A stretch of 64,000 nt of DNA from an uncultured Candidatus Saccharibacteria bacterium (GTDB lineage: Bacteria; Patescibacteriota; Saccharimonadia; Saccharimonadales; Saccharimonadaceae): positions 5,198 to 69,197 of the forward strand of contig CBDEOC010000059.1 of the NCBI GenBank assembly GCA_965241395.1, read 5' to 3'. The stretch's first letter is position 1. Each line of letters opens with the position of its first letter. Of the stretch, positions 6,473-55,221 are shown one piece after another. The translations under genes and the position numbers were made by a program. The notes beneath the pieces are model-generated. The model was not told the origin of the DNA. It made no database searches and saw only the letters and a list, made by a program, of their open reading frames with translations.

Positions 6473-6534
6473 ATTTACCGGATAAAAATGCGAAAACTTC
6501 TCATTTTTACCAAGTTTTCGCATTTTTGCTGTTA
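6473..6534. repeat. 62-nt leader element of ATPase-1, containing a perfect 16-bp inverted repeat; a second copy lies at 17983-18044
   Basis: AAAAATGCGAAAACTT (6484-6499), a 12-nt loop and AAGTTTTCGCATTTTT (6512-6527). The copy at 17983-18044 differs at 2 positions. Confidence 0.85.
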
Positions 6535-6548
6535 TACTAGTATGTATC

Positions 6549-7754
6549 GTGAAGTATATAGAACGGGCAGAGTATCTGAAAACTCTGCGAGAGCTAAAGG
6601 ATAAACATATCATTAAAGTGATTACCGGTGTGCGTCGTGCCGGTAAGTCTACTCTGATGCAACTCTTCAGAGAAGAAATAGCCCAAAAAATAGATAAGAG
6701 TCGGATCCAGTCATACAACTTTGAAGATCCAAAGTATAATGACATGACTAGCTGGCGGGAAGTCTATGACTTGATAGATAAGAAACTAGTGAAAGGTGAG
6801 CTGAACTATATTTTTCTTGATGAGGTCCAGGATATTCCGGGATTCGAAAAGCTGCTTGATGGACTATATATCAACGAGAATGTTGATCTGTATGTCACCG
6901 GCTCAAATGCCTACCTACTTAGCTCCGAGCTGGCGACTATTCTGACCGGTCGGGCTTATGAAATAAATATCCTACCTTTTTCGTTCAAAGAGTTCGCTCA
7001 GACTTACGCAAACTCGGCTGACGATAGTATAAAGTTTGAGCATTTTATGCGCTACTCAGCCTTTCCCCAAGCTACCGAGCTAATGCATCAGAATCCTGCT
7101 CTGGTTGTGAATTATCTAAGAAGCGTATATGAAAGCATCTTGGTAAAGGACATGCTTCCACGTAAACAGATATACGCTGAGCGTAGTTTTGAGAACGTAG
7201 TTAACTACGTGATGGATTCGATCGGTTCAAGCTTGTCACCTAATGGTATTGCTAGGGTTCTCGCTAGTGACAATAAAACGGTCGACTCTCGAACGGTTCA
7301 TTCATACTTGAAGTCGCTCTGCGATAGCTTCGTACTTTATAAAGCTGAGCGGTTTGACATTAAGGGTAGGCAAAATCTAGCGACACAGGAGAAGTACTAT
7401 GTAGTTGACCTTGGCTTTCGTAACTTACTACTTGGTAAAGAAGTCGGTCAAGATGCCGGTCATTTGTTGGAAAATGTTATCTACTTAGAATTGAGGCGAC
7501 GAGGTAATGAAATATGGGTCGGTAAGATTGGCGAAAGGGAGGTAGATTTCGTTGCTCGTGATAATGAAGGGTATCTAACATACTATCAAGTGGCCTATAC
7601 TGTGCGAGATGAAGCAGTGCTGAAGCGTGAGTTGGCGCCCTTTGATAAGATCCCTGACCATAATCCCAAAGTTCTTATCACTCTTGATCCGGAAGAAGTC
7701 TCCCGGCGCGGGGTGCGGCAAGTCAACGCAATCAACTGGCTACTTAGTGATTAA
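6549..7754 (+). CDS. COG1373-type AAA+ ATPase with a DUF4143-like C-terminal domain (ATPase-1)
   Basis: Walker A VITGVRRAGKSTL, Walker B IFLDEVQ and a C-terminal EVDFVARD...YYQVAY module. GTG start. Confidence 0.8.
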   Translation: MKYIERAEYLKTLRELKDKHIIKVITGVRRAGKSTLMQLFREEIAQKIDKSRIQSYNFEDPKYNDMTSWREVYDLIDKKLVKGELNYIFLDEVQDIPGFEKLLDGLYINENVDLYVTGSNAYLLSSELATILTGRAYEINILPFSFKEFAQTYANSADDSIKFEHFMRYSAFPQATELMHQNPALVVNYLRSVYESILVKDMLPRKQIYAERSFENVVNYVMDSIGSSLSPNGIARVLASDNKTVDSRTVHSYLKSLCDSFVLYKAERFDIKGRQNLATQEKYYVVDLGFRNLLLGKEVGQDAGHLLENVIYLELRRRGNEIWVGKIGEREVDFVARDNEGYLTYYQVAYTVRDEAVLKRELAPFDKIPDHNPKVLITLDPEEVSRRGVRQVNAINWLLSD

Positions 7755-7842: not shown

Positions 7843-8535
7843 ATGGACACGTCGACTGGTGAAAAGGTAGCTTTAATTACTACCGAGTCACTGACTAAGC
7901 GTTATCGAGTGGGTGGCCATGATCTACTGGCGACGAACAATGTCTCGCTGTCGATTAACCGAGGTGAATTCGTGGCGATTGTAGGTGAGAGCGGTAGCGG
8001 TAAGAGCACTCTACTGCAACTACTGGGAGGACTGGACAAACCGACTAGCGGTTCGATTGTCGTTAATGGAGCGGAGGTCACCGGGTTGAGCGACGGCAAA
8101 CTGTCGCAATTTCGCAACCGGACGATCGGCTTCGTCTTCCAGTCTTTTTATCTCCAACCGTTCTTAACTCTGCGCCGAAACATCGAGGTGGCAGCTATGC
8201 CCAGCCGGATGAAGCGGGACACCAGGCGAGCTCGGACTGATCGGCTGGCTGAGCAAGTCGGATTGGCTGATCGGCTAGACTATTATCCTCGCCAGCTATC
8301 AGGTGGACAGATCCAACGAGCGGCGATCGCCCGAGCACTATTCAATAAGCCACCGATCTTGCTGGCTGATGAGCCGACCGGCAATCTCGACTCACAGAAT
8401 AGCCAAGGCATCATTGCCCTGTTTCGGCAGATCTGTGATGAGTGGGGTACGACTGTAGTGGTAGTGACACATAGCCGAGAGGTAGCGATGGTAGCGGATC
8501 GGGTAGTCACAGTAAAAGACGGAGCTATCGTATGA
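7843..8535 (+). CDS. ABC transporter ATP-binding protein (MacB/LolD/FtsE-like)
   Basis: [26 protein letters not shown] and LLADEPTGNLD motifs. Confidence 0.92.
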   Translation: MDTSTGEKVALITTESLTKRYRVGGHDLLATNNVSLSINRGEFVAIVGESGSGKSTLLQLLGGLDKPTSGSIVVNGAEVTGLSDGKLSQFRNRTIGFVFQSFYLQPFLTLRRNIEVAAMPSRMKRDTRRARTDRLAEQVGLADRLDYYPRQLSGGQIQRAAIARALFNKPPILLADEPTGNLDSQNSQGIIALFRQICDEWGTTVVVVTHSREVAMVADRVVTVKDGAIV

Positions 8536-15917: not shown

Positions 15918-15934
15918 GCGAGAGGTGACATTCT

Positions 15935-15975
15935 TATTGACAATTTAGGTGACTTGCCACCGAAATTGTCAGTAG
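15935..15975. repeat. 41-nt palindrome-containing repeat, downstream copy flanking ATPase-2
   Basis: TATTGACAATTTAGGTGACTTGCCACCGAAATTGTCAGTAG is identical to 17346-17386. Internal hairpin: TGACAATTT.GGTG/CACC.AAATTGTCA. Confidence 0.9.
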
Positions 15976-16034: not shown

Positions 16035-17303
16035 TTATGACATCTCTCTATCTAGACTATCTTCATTTAGCAGGAAGTCTAGAATGTTCATGATGACAAT
16101 GCCGTTCTCTTCACGGCCCGGTAGCATCAGATCGCCGGTGACGATGATTCTTTTGAAGAAGTCGTCGATATTATTAAGCGGACGAGCCTCAATTGCTCTC
16201 TTCTCGGTATCGTTTATGGTGAGTGCTGACTGGATGTAATATTTACGGTCGCCCTGGTTGGCTACGAAATCGATTTCGACATGCTTCTTGCTCTTTTCCA
16301 TAGTCTTTAGGTTACGCTCATAAATCTCTACAACTCCGACATCAACCTGATAACCACGGTGACGGAGCTCATTATAGATGACATTCTCCATGATATGATT
16401 CTCTTCTATCTGGCGGAAGCCGACAAACGAGTTGCGAATACCGATGTCGGTGAAGTAGTATTTCACCGGAGTATCCATATACTGTTTACCCTTGACATCA
16501 AATCTCTTGGCACATTCGATGATATACGACTCTTCTAGCTTGCCGAGATAATCGTTGATAGTATTATGGCTCAGACTTACGTTTACCTTGCTCTTAAAAG
16601 TATTTTCCAGCTTATACGGGTTAGTCAGTGAGCCGACACTGGAGGCAACGATCTCGATAAGCGATCGGAGAGCAGTATCATTTCTCACGCTGTGACGTTC
16701 AATGATATCTTTGAGATAGATGTTTTGTTGAACCTCGTTTAGATAGGACATCTTTTGCCTGCTGTCGGAGTAGTGCATGATGAGAGGGAGACCACCATAG
16801 CGGATGTATTCCTGCCAACCATCATACTTATTACTATCATAAGCAGTCATAAACTCAGCAAAGCTAAGCGGATACATATGAATCTGCTCACTCCTGCCGC
16901 GAAACTCAGTCACGATATCACTCGAGAGAAACTTGGAGTTGCTGCCGGTCACATAAACATTCAGGTTGCCTTTAGCGAGGAAGCTACTGAGGACACTCTC
17001 AAATCTATTGACTAGCTGGATCTCGTCTAAGAGAAGAAAGTACTCGGAGTTATCCTTTACCTGATCTAAGATAAATGCGTGGAGAGCCTCACGATCGTGA
17101 AGCTTCTCATTTTCGAGTAATTCCAGGTTGAGATAGATGATATGATCCTCCGGCACTCCATCAGAGATCAGGTAATCCTTGAAGATAGGGTTTAAGAGAT
17201 ATGACTTCCCGCATCGACGGACGCCGGTGATTACCTTGATAAGGGGGATGCCTCTCCGATCAATTAGCTCCTTTAGATAAGTATCTCGTTTAATTTCCTT
17301 CAT
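16035..17303 (-). CDS. COG1373-type AAA+ ATPase with a DUF4143-like C-terminal domain (ATPase-2)
   Basis: VITGVRRCGKSYLL, LLLDEIQ and a C-terminal VEIDFVANQGDRKYYIQSAL module. AAAAGGAG RBS. It is a paralog of ATPase-1. Confidence 0.8.
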   Translation of the reverse strand: MKEIKRDTYLKELIDRRGIPLIKVITGVRRCGKSYLLNPIFKDYLISDGVPEDHIIYLNLELLENEKLHDREALHAFILDQVKDNSEYFLLLDEIQLVNRFESVLSSFLAKGNLNVYVTGSNSKFLSSDIVTEFRGRSEQIHMYPLSFAEFMTAYDSNKYDGWQEYIRYGGLPLIMHYSDSRQKMSYLNEVQQNIYLKDIIERHSVRNDTALRSLIEIVASSVGSLTNPYKLENTFKSKVNVSLSHNTINDYLGKLEESYIIECAKRFDVKGKQYMDTPVKYYFTDIGIRNSFVGFRQIEENHIMENVIYNELRHRGYQVDVGVVEIYERNLKTMEKSKKHVEIDFVANQGDRKYYIQSALTINDTEKRAIEARPLNNIDDFFKRIIVTGDLMLPGREENGIVIMNILDFLLNEDSLDREMS

Positions 17304-17345
17304 GTAGACTCCTTTTCTGCTCTAATTAAAGCACACATTTGTTCC

Positions 17346-17386
17346 TATTGACAATTTAGGTGACTTGCCACCGAAATTGTCAGTAG
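17346..17386. repeat. 41-nt palindrome-containing repeat, upstream (promoter-side) copy flanking ATPase-2
   Basis: Identical to 15935-15975. On the minus strand its right arm supplies TTGTCA, 18 nt before TTTAAT, ahead of the ATPase-2 RBS. Confidence 0.9.
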
Positions 17387-17461: not shown

Positions 17462-17520
17462 GGTAACCCAATTTATGGGCTAACGACTGGTAAATGGGTA
17501 ACATTATTTATAAGATAATG
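17462..17520. repeat. Copy X of a ~60-nt repeat family (GGTAACC..TTATGGGCTAACGACT..AATGGGTAAC.TTATTTAT.AGATAATG)
   Basis: About 80% identical by eye to 34799-34858. I read it as a possible solo IS-end remnant. Confidence 0.6.
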
Positions 17521-17982: not shown

Positions 17983-18162
17983 ATTTACCGGATAAAAATG
18001 CGAAAACTTCTCGTTTTTACCAAGTTTTCGCATTTTTGCTGCTACATTATTAGACAAGATCCCTGACCACAATCCCAAAGTTCTTATTACTCTTGATCCG
18101 GAAGAAGTCTCTCGGCGAGGGGTGCGGCAAGTCAACGCAATTAACTGGCTGCTTAGCTACTG
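17983..18162 (+). pseudogene. Internally deleted remnant of an ATPase-1 paralog (leader plus last ~35 codons)
   Basis: 17983-18044 matches the 6473-6534 leader. 18056-18162 matches the 3' end of ATPase-1 (7647-7754, about 90% by eye), reading ...DPDHNPKVLITLDPEEVSRRGVRQVNAINWLLSY*. Confidence 0.85.
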
Positions 18163-34798: not shown

Positions 34799-34858
34799 GG
34801 TAACCGTGGCTTATGGGCTAACGACTAGCTAATGGGTAACCTTATTTATGAGATAATG
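34799..34858. repeat. Copy Y of the ~60-nt repeat family seen at 17462-17520
   Basis: GGTAACCGTGGCTTATGGGCTAACGACTAGCTAATGGGTAACCTTATTTATGAGATAATG. It lies 12 nt upstream (minus strand) of the transposase fragment, consistent with an IS end. Confidence 0.6.
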
Positions 34859-51300: not shown

Positions 51301-52371
51301 TTGGTGGTCAAATCGCTTGATACCAGGGCAGAATTGACTGAGGCTGTCCAGTCGATCGTGTCATTTATAGAGCGGCCTCGAGAGGCGGATATTGTCACGC
51401 GGCGTTATGGGATCAAGGGTGAGCAAGAAACGCTAGAGCAAGTCGGTGAGACGATGCATATCACCAGAGAGCGGGTGCGTCAGATCGAAAAGGCGACCAT
51501 GATCCGGATCAAGCTGTGGCTGGAGAAAGGGTCCTGTCAGGCGTTTAATGTGGCGGAGATGGATATCGTCAAGTCGCTGCACGAGATGGGGCGAGCCGCC
51601 AAGGTCGGTGACTTAGCTGAGGCGGTGATGGGCGACTCCGAGAGACAAAGTCGAGCCTACGTCATGTTCTTAGCCGAGCTTAGCGGCAAGATGCTACCGA
51701 CTACGGAGAATGATAAATACCACGCCGGGGTGGTATTGACAAGCGACAAGGATGATCGCAGCGTTAAGGCGAGGATTGATGAGATTATCAAAGTACTCAA
51801 GGATAAGAAAGAGCCGGCTACTCTGGACGAACTATTTAAGTTAATTGGCAGTGGTTACGAGCATCCTAAGGAAATCGGAGCGATCGCTCGGCTGAGTAAG
51901 CAGGTGGCTAACCTGGACGATAAATGGGGCCTAGCCAAATGGGCGTCAGTCAATCCGCGGACCATTAGAGATAAAGTATATATTGTCCTTAAAGATAGTA
52001 AGAAGCCGATGCATTATAGTGAGATTGCCCAGCTGATCCGAGACCGAGGGCTTAATCGCAACAACTCCACCGACCCGGCAATTCACAACGAACTGATCAA
52101 GGATGATCGTTTCGTACTGGTGGGGCGGGGTATTTACGCTCTGGCTGAGTATGGCTATAAGAAGGGCTCGATCACTGATGTGATTACTGAGGTTCTTCGT
52201 CAGCACGGTCCGATGTACCGAGACGATATCGTCCGGGAGGTGCTCAAGGCTCGTCAAGTCCGAGAGACTACTATCCTGCTCAATCTACAGAGCCGACCGC
52301 AGTTTAAGCGAGTCGATAAGAATAAGTATGCTCTAGCTGAAGAAGTAGAGACGAGCCCGGCTAAGTCCTAG
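51301..52371 (+). CDS. DNA-binding protein with a sigma-70 region-4-like HTH and HARE-HTH-like C-terminal modules
   Basis: RYGIKGEQETLEQVGETMHITRERVRQIEKATM (region 4). Later MHYSEIAQLI...RFVLVGRGIYALAEYG and ...QFKRVDKNKYALAE (HARE-HTH-like). AAAGGAGAG RBS with a TTG or GTG start. Confidence 0.5.
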   Translation: MVVKSLDTRAELTEAVQSIVSFIERPREADIVTRRYGIKGEQETLEQVGETMHITRERVRQIEKATMIRIKLWLEKGSCQAFNVAEMDIVKSLHEMGRAAKVGDLAEAVMGDSERQSRAYVMFLAELSGKMLPTTENDKYHAGVVLTSDKDDRSVKARIDEIIKVLKDKKEPATLDELFKLIGSGYEHPKEIGAIARLSKQVANLDDKWGLAKWASVNPRTIRDKVYIVLKDSKKPMHYSEIAQLIRDRGLNRNNSTDPAIHNELIKDDRFVLVGRGIYALAEYGYKKGSITDVITEVLRQHGPMYRDDIVREVLKARQVRETTILLNLQSRPQFKRVDKNKYALAEEVETSPAKS

Positions 52372-52419: not shown

Positions 52420-52548
52420 CTCACCTTGACGAAGGAACTAGTTTATCGCGCTAATGCTTGACAAATGCGGGGGGGTGTTACAGTGGACACCATCAGGTTG
52501 CATGTGAGACCAGCTCACATGGCCTGCGATCCCTAAGGAGGGATTAGG
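52420..52548 (+). promoter_or_regulatory. Cassette promoter and leader, copy 1 (G7 spacer variant)
   Basis: TTGACA (52458-52463), a 15-nt spacer containing G7 (52469-52475), then TGtTACAGT (-10 at 52479-52484). The leader hairpin is CATGTGAG-accag-CTCACATG, and the SD AAGGAGGG lies inside TCCCT/AGGGA. Identical to 54431-54523 except for the G-run length. Confidence 0.6.
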
Positions 52549-52818
52549 ATGGAACTTTCAAGCAAGTTTCTCTTCCGTCCTGTAAATTACAACAGGGGTG
52601 AGGTTGATTTTGACCTCATCCTCAGGGATGAAAAGCTTGCCGGAGAGATCCGGCAAGCTCTGGGCTCGGGAGGGAAAGTTATCCTCCGGGGCACAGAAAT
52701 CATCATCGCCCCTAGAAAGGGCGATGGTTCACGCTGGAAGATGCATGACGTCCTCCAGTTAGGGAAGGAGATTGACGACACGCCCGTGTTCGTCGGGCGT
52801 ACGTATGTCAAGATTTGA
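52549..52818 (+). CDS. Hypothetical 89-aa protein (cassette ORF1; weak SpoVT/AbrB-like stretch)
   Basis: GGAGGG is 6 nt before the ATG, and the ORF has its own terminator. LAGEIRQALGSGGKVILRGTEIIIAP is reminiscent of AbrB/MazE-type swapped-hairpin motifs, but only weakly. Confidence 0.5.
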   Translation: MELSSKFLFRPVNYNRGEVDFDLILRDEKLAGEIRQALGSGGKVILRGTEIIIAPRKGDGSRWKMHDVLQLGKEIDDTPVFVGRTYVKI

Positions 52819-52839
52819 CATACATATCGCCCTTCCCCG

Positions 52840-52870
52840 CCCCTTGCTTCCGAGCAAGGGGTTTTTCCTT
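52840..52870 (+). terminator. Rho-independent terminator of cassette 1
   Basis: CCCCTTGCT-tccg-AGCAAGGGG followed by TTTTTCCTTTC. Nearly the same hairpin follows cassette 2. Confidence 0.75.
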
Positions 52871-52875
52871 TCAGG

Positions 52876-52916
52876 GTAACTCCGGATTTTTCCTGAGTTT
52901 GACTCCGTGTTTTGCC
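52876..52916. repeat. 41-bp perfect direct repeat, copy downstream of ATPase-3
   Basis: GTAACTCCGGATTTTTCCTGAGTTTGACTCCGTGTTTTGCC, identical to 54274-54314. Confidence 0.92.
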
Positions 52917-52942
52917 GGGTACTAGGAATCTTGGACTATGAG

Positions 52943-54226
52943 CTAATTCTTTAGACAGCCAATCGGGACGATATAGATGCCGTCGTCTTGACGGTAGGCG
53001 TAGTTGGTGGTAGCTGTCAAAATCATTAGGAATGACGGCTGGCGCATGACTTCAGTGTCAACGCTATCGACGAATCGCCGCAGTGATCTCGAGCCTTCAC
53101 TGATGGAGGTCTCGTCTGACCCGAGCTTAATCTCAATGGCTCCCCATTTGCCATCCGGTAGATGAATGATAGCATCGCACTCTCGACCGGCTTTATCTCG
53201 ATAATAATATAGACGACCATCTAGGCTTTCGGCATAAATCTTCAGGTCACGTAACGCCATAGACTCAAAGACCAGCCCAAATGTCCGATAGTCCAGGCGC
53301 AGGTCATTCTCCGAAGCAAGTAGTGCTGCTACAACGAGTGACGGGTCGGTAAAGTTTCGTTTCCAGCCTGATCTGATAGCAGTCTTACTCCTTAACTGTG
53401 GCGACCAGGGTTCAACGTCGTCAAGGATATGTAAACGGTTCAGTGTCTCCAGATATGACGATAGTGTCTTGTCGCTGATCGTTTCACCCGAGCCGATAAC
53501 GTCATTCATGATCGTCTGACCGGTTACCGGTGAGGCGATGTTGCGAGCTAGGCTTCGTATGACGGCTCTCATCTTGGGAGTGGAGAAGGAGATGTCGTTG
53601 TCTAAGTCGGTCATCGATTCGTTAGTCAGGATGACCTCCAAGTAATCACGAGCTAACTTGCCGGCGTTGGTCGGATTACGCTTGACGCTAGCCGGCCAGC
53701 CACCACGGGTACAGAGTCGGGCAATATCCTCAGGTGTCAATCCGGCTTCTCCGGCGATATTTTCATTATCACAAAAAAGGCTTTTTAGTGAAACGGCGCC
53801 ATTAGACTCGCCGGATTCGTAGAGACTCATGGGGCGCATGATTAGTCGGACTATGCGCCCGGCGCCGGAGTGGGCGGGCTTGCTAACTTTAGGCGTGGAT
53901 GAGCCGGTCAAGATATATTGTCCGGTCAGCCCGGTCTTGTCAACATCGTAGCGAATAGCATCCCAGATAGCGGGCGTATCTTGCCACTCATCAATCAGAC
54001 GGGGCTTGTCGCCACTAAGTAGGATACCGGGGTCTGACTTGGCGATAGCCTTGTTGTTCTCGGCGGTAGTAGGGTTCTGCATCTCGATGGAGCTGTTAGC
54101 CAGCTGACGAGCAGTGGTTGACTTGCCACACCATTTACAGCCCTCCAACGATACGGCACCGTAAAGCTCCAAGTTTTCTCTGAGTACATCATCCATTAGT
54201 CGGGGGATATAGTCGCTGTCTTTCAT
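52943..54226 (-). CDS. COG1373-type AAA+ ATPase with a DUF4143/PD-(D/E)xK-like C-terminal domain (ATPase-3)
   Basis: Walker A LEGCKWCGKSTTA, Walker B LIDEWQ and a C-terminal RECDAIIHLPDGKWGAIEIKLG (D...E.K). It belongs to a different subfamily from ATPase-1 and ATPase-2. Confidence 0.8.
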   Translation of the reverse strand: MKDSDYIPRLMDDVLRENLELYGAVSLEGCKWCGKSTTARQLANSSIEMQNPTTAENNKAIAKSDPGILLSGDKPRLIDEWQDTPAIWDAIRYDVDKTGLTGQYILTGSSTPKVSKPAHSGAGRIVRLIMRPMSLYESGESNGAVSLKSLFCDNENIAGEAGLTPEDIARLCTRGGWPASVKRNPTNAGKLARDYLEVILTNESMTDLDNDISFSTPKMRAVIRSLARNIASPVTGQTIMNDVIGSGETISDKTLSSYLETLNRLHILDDVEPWSPQLRSKTAIRSGWKRNFTDPSLVVAALLASENDLRLDYRTFGLVFESMALRDLKIYAESLDGRLYYYRDKAGRECDAIIHLPDGKWGAIEIKLGSDETSISEGSRSLRRFVDSVDTEVMRQPSFLMILTATTNYAYRQDDGIYIVPIGCLKN

Positions 54227-54273
54227 ATCTTGCTTACCTTATTGTACCACGAGCGTTACCCATAGTCACTACT

Positions 54274-54314
54274 GTAACTCCGGATTTTTCCTGAGTTTGA
54301 CTCCGTGTTTTGCC
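54274..54314. repeat. 41-bp perfect direct repeat, copy upstream of ATPase-3
   Basis: Identical to 52876-52916. Confidence 0.92.
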
Positions 54315-54397
54315 TGATATAGTGTAAAACGATTCAGGTTGATAAGGGTGGTAATCGCTATATATAGCTATATATTCATAACGGTATCTCCGATCGG

Positions 54398-54528
54398 CTC
54401 GCCTTGACGAAATAAGCTTTCGATTACGCTAATGCTTGACAAATGCGGGGGGGGGTGTTACAGTGGACACCATCAGGTTGCATGTGAGACCAGCTCACAT
54501 GGCCTGCGATCCCTAAGGAGGGATGATC
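54398..54528 (+). promoter_or_regulatory. Cassette promoter and leader, copy 2 (G9 spacer variant)
   Basis: TTGACA (54436-54441), a 17-nt spacer containing G9 (54447-54455), then TGtTACAGT (-10 at 54459-54464). The leader hairpin and SD are the same as in copy 1. Confidence 0.6.
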
Positions 54529-55077
54529 ATGAGTAAAATCATGACCAAAGCGTCGGAAATTATCCTTTCTGGTCGTTATGACCGAGAGGGATGCCGTACC
54601 CGGGTAGTGATACCCAGGTACAAGCTCGGTCAGTGCGTGAACATAACGCACTGGCCGGAGCAGTCCCGGGAGTGCCTGGAGAAGGCTCTCCCCGGTCATC
54701 CCAATCTCGTCGACCTGGTCGACGGGATTGTCGGACGGCCTGGACTGTCCGAAGGGGTGAAACTTGGGAATACTTCCGAGTTTTACCCTGAGCTGCGCCT
54801 GGTCGCATATAGCCAGACGCAGTTCGTCGTAGAGTTGAGGTACCTCATCTCTGCAATCTACGAGCATTCTCGCCATTTGGCGAGAATGCTTGATCGGTTT
54901 TACCCGTTATGGGTTAAACCAAGAGAGGAGGATATTTCCTCCGACCTTGCCACCATTACGGTGGCTGAGGTTGGGTGCAAGGGGGATCGCCCTATTTGGG
55001 TGACCATTCCTTGTAGTTGGGAGGATATGTCTCCCAACGGAAGAGGGCTGGTGACGCCTGCCGGCGTTGCTGGGTAA
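54529..55077 (+). CDS. Hypothetical 182-aa protein (cassette ORF2), visibly GC-richer than its neighbours
   Basis: The ATG at 54529 has the same 6-nt spacing from GGAGGG as ORF1 (the track start at 54523 abuts the SD). It has its own terminator. I recognise no motif. Confidence 0.5.
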   Translation: MSKIMTKASEIILSGRYDREGCRTRVVIPRYKLGQCVNITHWPEQSRECLEKALPGHPNLVDLVDGIVGRPGLSEGVKLGNTSEFYPELRLVAYSQTQFVVELRYLISAIYEHSRHLARMLDRFYPLWVKPREEDISSDLATITVAEVGCKGDRPIWVTIPCSWEDMSPNGRGLVTPAGVAG

Positions 55078-55102
55078 TCCCTGCTCTACTCTTCCTCTCC
55101 TC

Positions 55103-55140
55103 GCCCCTTGCTTCCGAGTAAGGGGCATTTTCTTTTTATC
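55103..55140 (+). terminator. Rho-independent terminator of cassette 2
   Basis: GCCCCTTGCT-tccg-AGTAAGGGGC followed by ATTTTCTTTTT. Confidence 0.75.
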
Positions 55141-55179: not shown

Positions 55180-55221
55180 AGGGTAGCTCGGTAGCCTTGT
55201 TTATGAGCTAACGGTCACTAG
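55180..55221. repeat. Degenerate copy Z of the TTATG(G/A)GCTAACG motif family
   Basis: CAGGGTAGCTCGGTAGCCTTGTTTATGAGCTAACGGTCACTAG, compared with copy Y CAGGGTAACCGTGGCTTATGGGCTAACGACTAG. Confidence 0.35.

Follow-up and report, generated by a model that had tools for sequence, protein, structure and literature searches.

The stretch of DNA analysed here, referred to as the window, comprises 64 kb from an oral member of Candidatus Saccharibacteria (TM7 group G5), and the subject of this report is a locus at 52420-55140 in which two open reading frames (ORFs), ORF1 of 89 amino acids and ORF2 of 182 amino acids, are each enclosed in the same set of regulatory parts and flank an oppositely oriented gene for an ATPase. 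The neighbours of the locus are dnaE, a gene for a protein with sigma-70 region 4 and HARE-HTH, and uvrA, and their order is kept in all related contigs. As described below, the two sites are probably paralogous copies of one expression shell, which consists of a promoter with a slippery run of G, a leader with two hairpins and a terminator, and by which the two genes would share a regulatory logic while being tuned independently through the length of the G-run; we put the probability of this reading at roughly 0.6. The features of the locus are as follows, with positions in nucleotides (nt) of the window.

52426-52431, plus strand: upstream TTGACG box of copy 1, within a partly conserved region of about 30 nt located 5' of the promoter.
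52458-52484, plus strand: promoter copy 1, with the -35 hexamer TTGACA (52458-52463), AATGC, G7 (52469-52475) and the extended -10 element TGT-TACAGT (52476-52484); the spacer of 15 nt is below the optimum.
52494-52526, plus strand: leader hairpin 1, copy 1, with the lower stem CAGGU/GCCUG, a UG bulge, the upper stem CAUGUGAG/CUCACAUG and the loop ACCAG.
52528-52545, plus strand: leader hairpin 2, copy 1, (G)AUCCCU-AAGG-AGGGAU(U), which covers the ribosome-binding site GGAGGG (52537-52542).
52549-52818, plus strand: ORF1, 89 amino acids, of an uncharacterised small-protein family.
52839-52871, plus strand: intrinsic terminator T1, a GC-rich hairpin of 9 bp followed by a T-tract (52863-52871).
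52876-52921, plus strand: direct repeat D2a, 46 nt, the 3' flank of the ATPase insert.
52943-54226, minus strand: ATPase with AAA_14 and DUF4143, 427 amino acids, with its own promoter, matching PDC-S01 of PADLOC and varying in presence among genomes.
54274-54319, plus strand: direct repeat D2b, 46 nt, 5' of the ATPase promoter.
54360-54375: palindrome ATATATAGCTATATAT, 16 nt.
54404-54409, plus strand: upstream TTGACG box of copy 2, the second copy of the box at 52426-52431.
54436-54464, plus strand: promoter copy 2, with TTGACA, AATGC, G9 (54447-54455) and TGT-TACAGT; the spacer of 17 nt equals the optimum.
54474-54506, plus strand: leader hairpin 1, copy 2, of the same sequence as in copy 1.
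54508-54525, plus strand: leader hairpin 2, copy 2, covering the ribosome-binding site.
54529-55077, plus strand: ORF2, 182 amino acids, of a lineage-confined family with mosaic, deeply diverged alleles.
55103-55135, plus strand: intrinsic terminator T2, in which one G-C pair of T1 is a G·U pair; its T-tract is at 55127-55135.

The two copies are homologous. They share a promoter/leader core of 70 nt (52475-52544 and 54455-54524) without a mismatch, which was matched by none of 100 shuffles, and upstream of the core their similarity continues at 80% identity as far as 52420 and 54398, respectively, over a region that includes a second TTGACG box. The G-run (52469-52475 in copy 1, 54447-54455 in copy 2) is 7 nt long in the former and 9 nt long in the latter, and the terminator sequence, CGCCCCTTGCTTCCGAG(C/T)AAGGGG at 52838-52861 and 55102-55125, differs at one stem position, where a G-C pair is changed to G·U. 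Both ORFs start 6 nt past GGAGGG, at 52549 and 54529, and their products are unrelated, the BLASTP comparison of the two proteins giving an E-value of 2.4. An earlier account of this DNA, which we call the sequence-only reading, had described this arrangement of a common promoter and leader, nearly identical terminators, equal start distances and dissimilar ORFs, and all of it was found as described; its remark that ORF2 is visibly richer in guanine and cytosine is correct as to the direction, the difference being only about 3 points (0.548 vs 0.519).

The shell is also present on other genes. A genome scan with the promoter pattern yielded 69 loci, all in Candidatus Saccharibacteria and including Candidatus Nanoperiomorbus periodonticus (TM7 group G5, HOT-356), and 104 promoter copies located upstream of ORF1, ORF2 or an ASCH protein were parsed from these loci and those fetched earlier. 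The loci were gathered with patterns taken from the shell itself and, since the search pattern included the promoter hexamers, their invariance is by construction. About 50 Saccharibacteria assemblies carry the shell on ORF1-like proteins, ORF2, an ASCH-GNAT operon or a short acidic protein, and the leader precedes at least five unrelated cargo types. ORF1 occurs in two N-terminal allele forms and ORF2 in several allele groups. The ASCH-GNAT operon, which encodes an ASCH-domain protein of 120 amino acids followed by a GNAT acetyltransferase, has an unlinked position close to the ribosomal protein L10 and L7/L12 genes, and the fourth cargo, found by a metagenome scan with the hairpin pattern, is a short acidic protein starting with MTKRAESATSS. 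An exact 30-mer of a further context, seen in run X2, had no match in the metagenome contigs. In a second oral lineage, 3-4 tandem shell units occupy the region from a class II tRNA synthetase gene (tRNA-synt_2b) to pth, each unit consisting of the promoter, the leader, a small ORF of about 55-90 amino acids and the shared terminator, and the units adjoin a gene for a DUF4143 ATPase of 424 amino acids, with NYN or Schlafen-like genes in some loci. The small ORFs of this lineage are probably homologous to ORF1, as suggested by a profile-profile comparison with hhalign (E = 6e-5, probability 65%, 52 columns). The same locus as in the window is also found on a contig of 464 kb (BNJU01000444.1, GCA_015471965.1; L008, L092 and L111), in which nearly every gene is fragmented and homopolymers are reduced in length; it has the look of a long-read assembly with many errors and not of a set of real pseudogenes.

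Rearrangement among these loci has taken the form of ordinary deletion, gene conversion and recombination of one leader copy with the other. The two shell copies within a genome exchange sequence: a rare variant, CAGGGGGG, is present in both promoter copies of L057, and upstream haplotypes are shuffled between the two slots. In L047 and L076, in which ORF1 and the ATPase are missing, an ORF1-type upstream region is joined via the leader directly to ORF2, and this junction would be the product expected of recombination between the two leader copies. In addition, ORF1 is missing in L016, with the junction at the shared TTGACA, ORF2 is missing in L035, ORF1 and the ATPase are missing in L053 because of a deletion from the 3' end of the sigma-like gene to D2b, and most of ORF1 is missing in L013, with the leader fused to its 3' part. 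These independent losses indicate that ORF1, the ATPase and ORF2 are all dispensable accessory genes.

The ATPase gene (52943-54226, minus strand) lies between the 46-nt repeats, in the opposite orientation to the two ORFs, as the sequence-only reading had stated. Its product matches PDC-S01 of PADLOC (E = 2.4e-58, residues 5-425), which is a candidate defence family only, and contains the Pfam domains AAA_14 and DUF4143. Exactly one copy of D2 is left in L015 (5850-5960, minus strand) and L011, which have no ATPase and in this respect resemble an empty site, suggesting that the gene either arrived by insertion, with duplication of a target of about 46 bp, or disappeared via recombination between the repeats. 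It had been proposed that the three genes form one functional module, and a unit of this kind, of a defence or toxin-antitoxin-like nature, in which the identical shells would give a fixed ratio of the two small partners, is consistent with the gene order kept in most genomes, with the match of the ATPase to PDC-S01 and with the finding that a related AAA_14/DUF4143 ATPase (424 amino acids) is again found next to small genes with the leader in the second lineage, at another chromosomal site and together with NYN and Schlafen-like genes. However, each of the three genes can be absent with the others intact, so that the association is not an obligate one, and the two promoters usually differ in G-run length, so that a fixed ratio is not kept. 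Furthermore, the identities of ORF1 and ORF2 to those of the window rank the loci in different orders, and the ATPase has flanking direct repeats of its own, as an independent insert would. It therefore seems rather doubtful that the three genes work as one unit, although the recurrent association of the ATPase with leader-bearing small genes stands.

Related genes occur elsewhere in the window and in other genomes. A second AAA_14/DUF4143 ATPase gene is present at 16035-17303 (minus strand) between direct repeats of 45 nt (15931-15975 and 17342-17386); its product is very distant from the first, with about 25% local identity, and its repeats are unrelated in sequence, suggesting that flanking repeats are a general feature of the gain and loss of these ATPase/PD-(D/E)XK genes. 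For a third gene of this type, at 6549-7754, the 70 nt upstream and the last 107 nt recur adjacently at about 18 kb with 93% identity (6473-7754 vs 17983-18156), and the copy has the appearance of a remnant left by an internal deletion. In the second lineage, other cassettes have short copies of the ATPase 3' end after their terminators (L115, 6968-6996 vs 8280-8308; L099 and L091), which suggests that the ATPase was earlier inserted or deleted at several junctions between cassettes. No literature on mobile DUF4143 genes was found. In one strain, a DUF3800 gene and an ORF of 173 amino acids are inserted between the ORF2 terminator and uvrA (L006, 6780-8021; L007, 823-2064), which again points to the site as a hotspot of accessory or defence-type genes. 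Upstream of the locus, the gene at 51301-52371 has only sigma-70 region 4 and HARE-HTH, resembles the delta subunit of RNA polymerase and is kept in all loci.

Nucleotide diversity was computed over 21 aligned modules. It was 0.011 for leader 2, 0.019 for terminator 2, 0.009 for D2b and 0 for the 16-nt palindrome, and it was 0.047 for leader 1, mostly owing to the final 8 nt, at which the leaders of the two allele forms of ORF1 differ, whereas it was 0.11-0.32 at third codon positions and 0.38 in the spacer from the ORF2 stop codon to terminator 2. Thus, synonymous sites vary far more than the shell, whose diversity is 10-30 times lower than that of the adjacent synonymous sites. In the terminator hairpin, four pairs differ between the two lineages, and all four changes are compensatory (CCCCTTGCT-TCCG-AGCAAGGGG vs GCGCTATCT-TGCG-AGATAGCGC); there are wobble intermediates, and the tail, TTTTTCCTT, is identical. 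With a GC-rich hairpin whose stem is kept by covariation, a U-tract and a position after the stop codon, this element has the properties of an intrinsic (Rho-independent) terminator.

The sharing of the shell could in principle be an evolutionary by-product, in which case an ordinary promoter, 5' untranslated region (UTR) and terminator would have been duplicated and kept identical by gene conversion between copies that lie 2 kb apart, and the hairpins and the G-run would have no special regulatory role. Conversion does occur, as the rare variant in both copies of L057 and the shuffling of upstream haplotypes between slots indicate, and part of the conservation is background, because divergence in the housekeeping genes is only about 5%; in a first comparison with six related loci, nucleotide identity to the window was about 95-96% for housekeeping genes, 84-93% for ORF1 and 79-92% for ORF2. 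However, the shell is kept between lineages and at unlinked loci such as the ASCH operon, which are beyond the reach of conversion, and the changes that occur in it preserve structure. The 10-30-fold lower diversity relative to adjacent synonymous sites also stands against such a by-product, as does the G-run, which is kept in several paralogous copies while no other such tract exists in the 64 kb. We consider this explanation unlikely.

The leader was analysed with a covariance model, which was built from 15 leaders and run on the window and on 28 loci chosen as representative. It matched 52 copies, 37 of them distinct, and in the window it found only the two known copies. The 13 pairs of hairpin 1 were formed in 99.4% of cells among the 37 distinct leaders, compared with 17-53% in shifted-register controls, and three of the 13 pairs showed compensatory changes (G-C/G·U/A-U, A-U/G-C and U-A/U·G/C-G). 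The states of one lower-stem pair are U·G, U-A and C-G, with U·G in 33 of the 37 distinct sequences. Hairpin 2 consists of a pyrimidine arm paired to the ribosome-binding site, and 24 of the 26 distinct 3' tails form it despite their differing sequences, with arms such as AUCCCU/AGGGAU, GUUCUU/AGGAGC, ACCC/GGGG, CCCCU/AGGGG and GAUUU/AGGUC. Regarding the three-tier hairpin and the second stem proposed by the sequence-only reading, the CAGG/CCTG tier and the upper stem make up the main hairpin with its compensatory changes, and the second stem does cover GGAGGG and thereby the Shine-Dalgarno sequence, but the outer GGA/TCC tier is neither predicted nor conserved, and it conflicts with hairpin 2, to which its TCC belongs. 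The leader had no Rfam match at gathering or E-value thresholds (E up to 10), only tRNAs having passed in the window. Its proposed role as a common cis-regulatory RNA is supported by the occurrence before at least five unrelated cargo types and by the compensatory changes of the main hairpin; the leader is neither restricted to the two sites nor devoid of covariation. Taken together, the presence of the leader before several genes in two lineages and its compensatory pairs are properties expected of a structured cis-regulatory 5' UTR RNA.

Hairpin 1 could alternatively be a DNA palindrome that binds a dimeric repressor just downstream of the start site and co-regulates all shell genes. It is a perfect inverted repeat of 8 bp with a 5-nt spacer at approximately +17 to +37, symmetric compensatory changes preserve a DNA palindrome as well, and copy 2 is preceded by a second palindrome, which is invariant among the loci aligned. 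However, G·U states are frequent and favour an RNA helix over a DNA operator, since they are sensible only in RNA, as with the U·G of the lower stem and the wobble intermediates at three other pairs. Moreover, the stem differs at three positions between contexts of one genome or locus, so that a single repressor would lose contacts, and the loop and spacer vary freely in sequence. A repressor site at hairpin 1 is thus quite improbable.

Both palindromes noted by the sequence-only reading were found at the positions claimed. The one across the ORF1 stop codon (52803-52823) is perfect in only 21 of 32 distinct contexts. The 16-nt palindrome, ATATATAGCTATATAT, is invariant in 21 aligned loci while its flanks vary, has a one-base deletion in two other contexts and is kept also in genomes that have no ATPase, and it may be an operator. 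Apart from these elements, the motif TTATG(A/G)GCTAACG(G/A) is present in several intergenic regions of the window (17473-17520, 34811-34858, 52922-52946 and 55187-55211).

The suggestion that ORFs are actively moved or swapped between fixed promoter and terminator shells, as in an integron or a shufflon, accords with the unrelated cargo within homologous shells, the several presence/absence breakpoints at shell edges and the mosaic cargo alleles, but it is very improbable, because in about 50 assemblies ORF1 is always in slot 1 and ORF2 always in slot 2, deletion breakpoints are heterogeneous (e.g., the L016 junction at the shared TTGACA), no attC-like or inverted-repeat recombination site was seen, a recombinase or integrase gene not having been specifically searched for, and each unit has its own promoter and, as its sole 3' element, the terminator hairpin, instead of the promoterless cargo and attC of an integron cassette. 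Integron-like cassettes were accordingly rejected, and so were miniature inverted-repeat transposable elements and Correia-type repeats, as no terminal inverted repeats or target duplications were seen around the shells. The shells became attached to unrelated genes only over evolutionary time.

In the promoter, the G-run is placed between TTGACA and the extended -10 element TGT-TACAGT, so that the spacer equals the tract length plus 8. Both copies in the window have a homopolymer of at least 7 between the two hexamers (G7 and G9), which is the arrangement expected of a phase-variable spacer promoter, and these two tracts are the only runs of G or C of at least 7 in the window. Over 130 distinct promoter contexts, all taken from assembled sequences, the G-run length was 5-10. 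Pure tracts gave spacers of 13 nt (2 contexts), 14 nt (20), 15 nt (43), 16 nt (30), 17 nt (13) and 18 nt (1), the commonest being 15 nt, and 14 of 21 tracts interrupted by a substitution, which should not slip, had a spacer of 16-17 nt. The tract length varies among close relatives and independently between the copies, a polymorphism characteristic of phase-variable promoters: L023 and L036 are 98.75% identical over the aligned region of about 3.1 kb, yet have 7 and 8 G, and the lengths of the two copies in the same genome can differ and usually do. Other promoter-like sites nearby, namely those of the ATPase gene, uvrA and a second promoter type of the other lineage, have TGn and a 17-nt spacer, and a consensus promoter scan calls only the ORF2 copy, with its 17-nt spacer, of the two shell promoters of the window. 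These data fit a phase-variable or tunable promoter, the phase variation itself being inferred from the variation in tract length.

Regarding the encoded proteins, the ratio of nonsynonymous to synonymous substitution rates (dN/dS) was computed across 25 complete modules, and was 0.20 for ORF1 (synonymous rate, dS, 0.42), 0.32 for ORF2 (dS 0.81) and 0.06 for the ATPase (dS 0.43). The values of 0.20 and 0.32 indicate that ORF1 and ORF2 are real protein-coding genes that are fast-evolving, and they rule out positive selection over the whole of either ORF. The alleles of ORF2 are mosaics of alternative blocks, and its high diversity (dS 0.81) can be ascribed to old, recombining alleles. ORF1, ORF2 and the small-protein profile had no match in Pfam, NCBIfam, PADLOC, PHROGs or PDB sequences. 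The small-protein family of ORF1 comprises, by profile search, at least 222 clusters at 90% identity, none of which is annotated. A profile search with ORF2 in 1.84 billion representative proteins returned only its own narrow family, with no relatives outside the clade, and look-ups of the ORF2 of the window and of its 99%-identical relative P0001 gave no match. The AlphaFold2 models of ORF1 and ORF2, made on shallow alignments, had predicted local distance difference test (pLDDT) scores of 48 and 43 and were too poor for use.

From these findings, we suppose that the shell consists of four parts, which are a sigma-70-type promoter (TTGACA, G-tract, TGnTACAGT) whose readily length-changing G-run would set the distance from the -35 to the -10 hexamer, a 5' UTR that measures about 60 nt and contains a bulged hairpin of 13 bp, a short second hairpin covering the ribosome-binding site and a GC-rich intrinsic terminator. 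Together with the small accessory genes like ORF1, which form a family, it would have been duplicated, and it would also have been recombined onto unrelated genes, such as ORF2, the ASCH-GNAT operon and the gene for the short acidic protein, the genes that bear it all appearing to reside in variable, defence-island-like regions of oral Saccharibacteria. Transcription is predicted to start about 7 nt past TACAGT, hairpin 1 could act as RNA by stabilising the mRNA or by serving as a platform for protein binding, and hairpin 2 would lower translation initiation. In sequencing runs flagged as possible RNA, the assembled contigs break at the repeat. Slippage in the G-run may move the spacer within 13-18 nt and thereby switch or tune each gene independently, like a contingency locus, and in the window ORF2, with the 17-nt spacer, would be ON and ORF1, with the 15-nt spacer, would be low.

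Several points weigh against this paralogous-shell reading. The covariation rests on few independent events, about two hairpin haplotypes and a few single changes, and a few copies of hairpin 1 have a C·A mismatch or a bulge (L063, L077, L071 and L024). The apparent conservation of the promoter and hairpin 1 is inflated by the pattern-based search for loci. Strain differences or homopolymer errors could account for part of the variation in tract length seen among metagenome-assembled genomes and, with an extended -10 box, the -35 spacing may count less than assumed. It is also possible, though we advance this only tentatively, to go further and regard the shell as a portable contingency device that has spread onto the hypervariable small proteins of a large, uncharacterised family and onto other accessory genes and gives each cell a random combination of them, for example to tune the interaction with the host bacterium or with phages; it would then be the first phase-variation system to be described in the candidate phyla radiation (CPR) as well as a new motif of cis-regulatory RNA.

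Saccharibacteria are obligate epibionts with tiny genomes, and their gene regulation is almost uncharted. The unit of promoter, leader and terminator, with its covariation support and at least five gene types, would therefore rank among the first cis-regulatory elements defined for this phylum, and the shell looks like a new small regulatory RNA element with a possibly phase-variable promoter. Neither a description of the shell element nor reports of phase variation in Saccharibacteria themselves were found in literature searches, and the poly-G spacer provides a concrete candidate for the latter. The results also point to an unannotated small-protein family of at least 222 clusters, arrayed beside candidate defence genes, and the shell could be used as a native cassette for gene expression in those Saccharibacteria that have lately been made genetically tractable.

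Among known systems, the vlp genes of Mycoplasma hyorhinis and similar variable-lipoprotein families of mycoplasmas each have a highly conserved promoter and 5' region and a homopolymer, poly-A, in the spacer between the -35 and -10 elements. The shell genes are similar in the conservation of these parts, in the homopolymer within the spacer, in the independent tract length of each copy and in the variable coding part, but they differ in that the tract is poly-G, the cargo has no signal peptide or lipobox and includes several mutually unrelated types, the terminator is also shared and the switching is only inferred. In porA, opc and fetA of Neisseria meningitidis and hif of Haemophilus, the phase-variable promoters have a repeat tract in the spacer, and the dependence on its length has been measured. 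The shell promoters resemble them in the poly-G/C or repeat tract in the spacer, in the lengths around the 17-nt optimum and in the polymorphism among strains, whereas those are promoters of single surface-protein genes in Proteobacteria with measured length dependence, and the shell has a CPR host, an extended -10 element and cargo that appears cytoplasmic. As for the leader, ROSE and fourU RNA thermometers cover the ribosome-binding site, and 5' stem-loops of the ompA and ermC type stabilise mRNA. The leader has likewise a short pyrimidine arm on the ribosome-binding site and a stable hairpin near the predicted 5' end of the mRNA, but it matches no Rfam family, lacks the G-bulge of ROSE, is predicted to have about 6-9 unpaired nt before hairpin 1 and travels as a two-hairpin unit with a specific promoter and terminator. 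The shell units are also like integron gene cassettes in being modular, with different cargo, tandem arrays and variable regions, and unlike them in having their own promoter and terminator and a fixed slot content, with no attC-like site seen and no search made for an integrase. On these comparisons, the shell would come closest to the vlp-type families of mycoplasmas and to the neisserial promoters whose spacer contains a homopolymer, with ordinary 5' UTR hairpins over the ribosome-binding site added to them.

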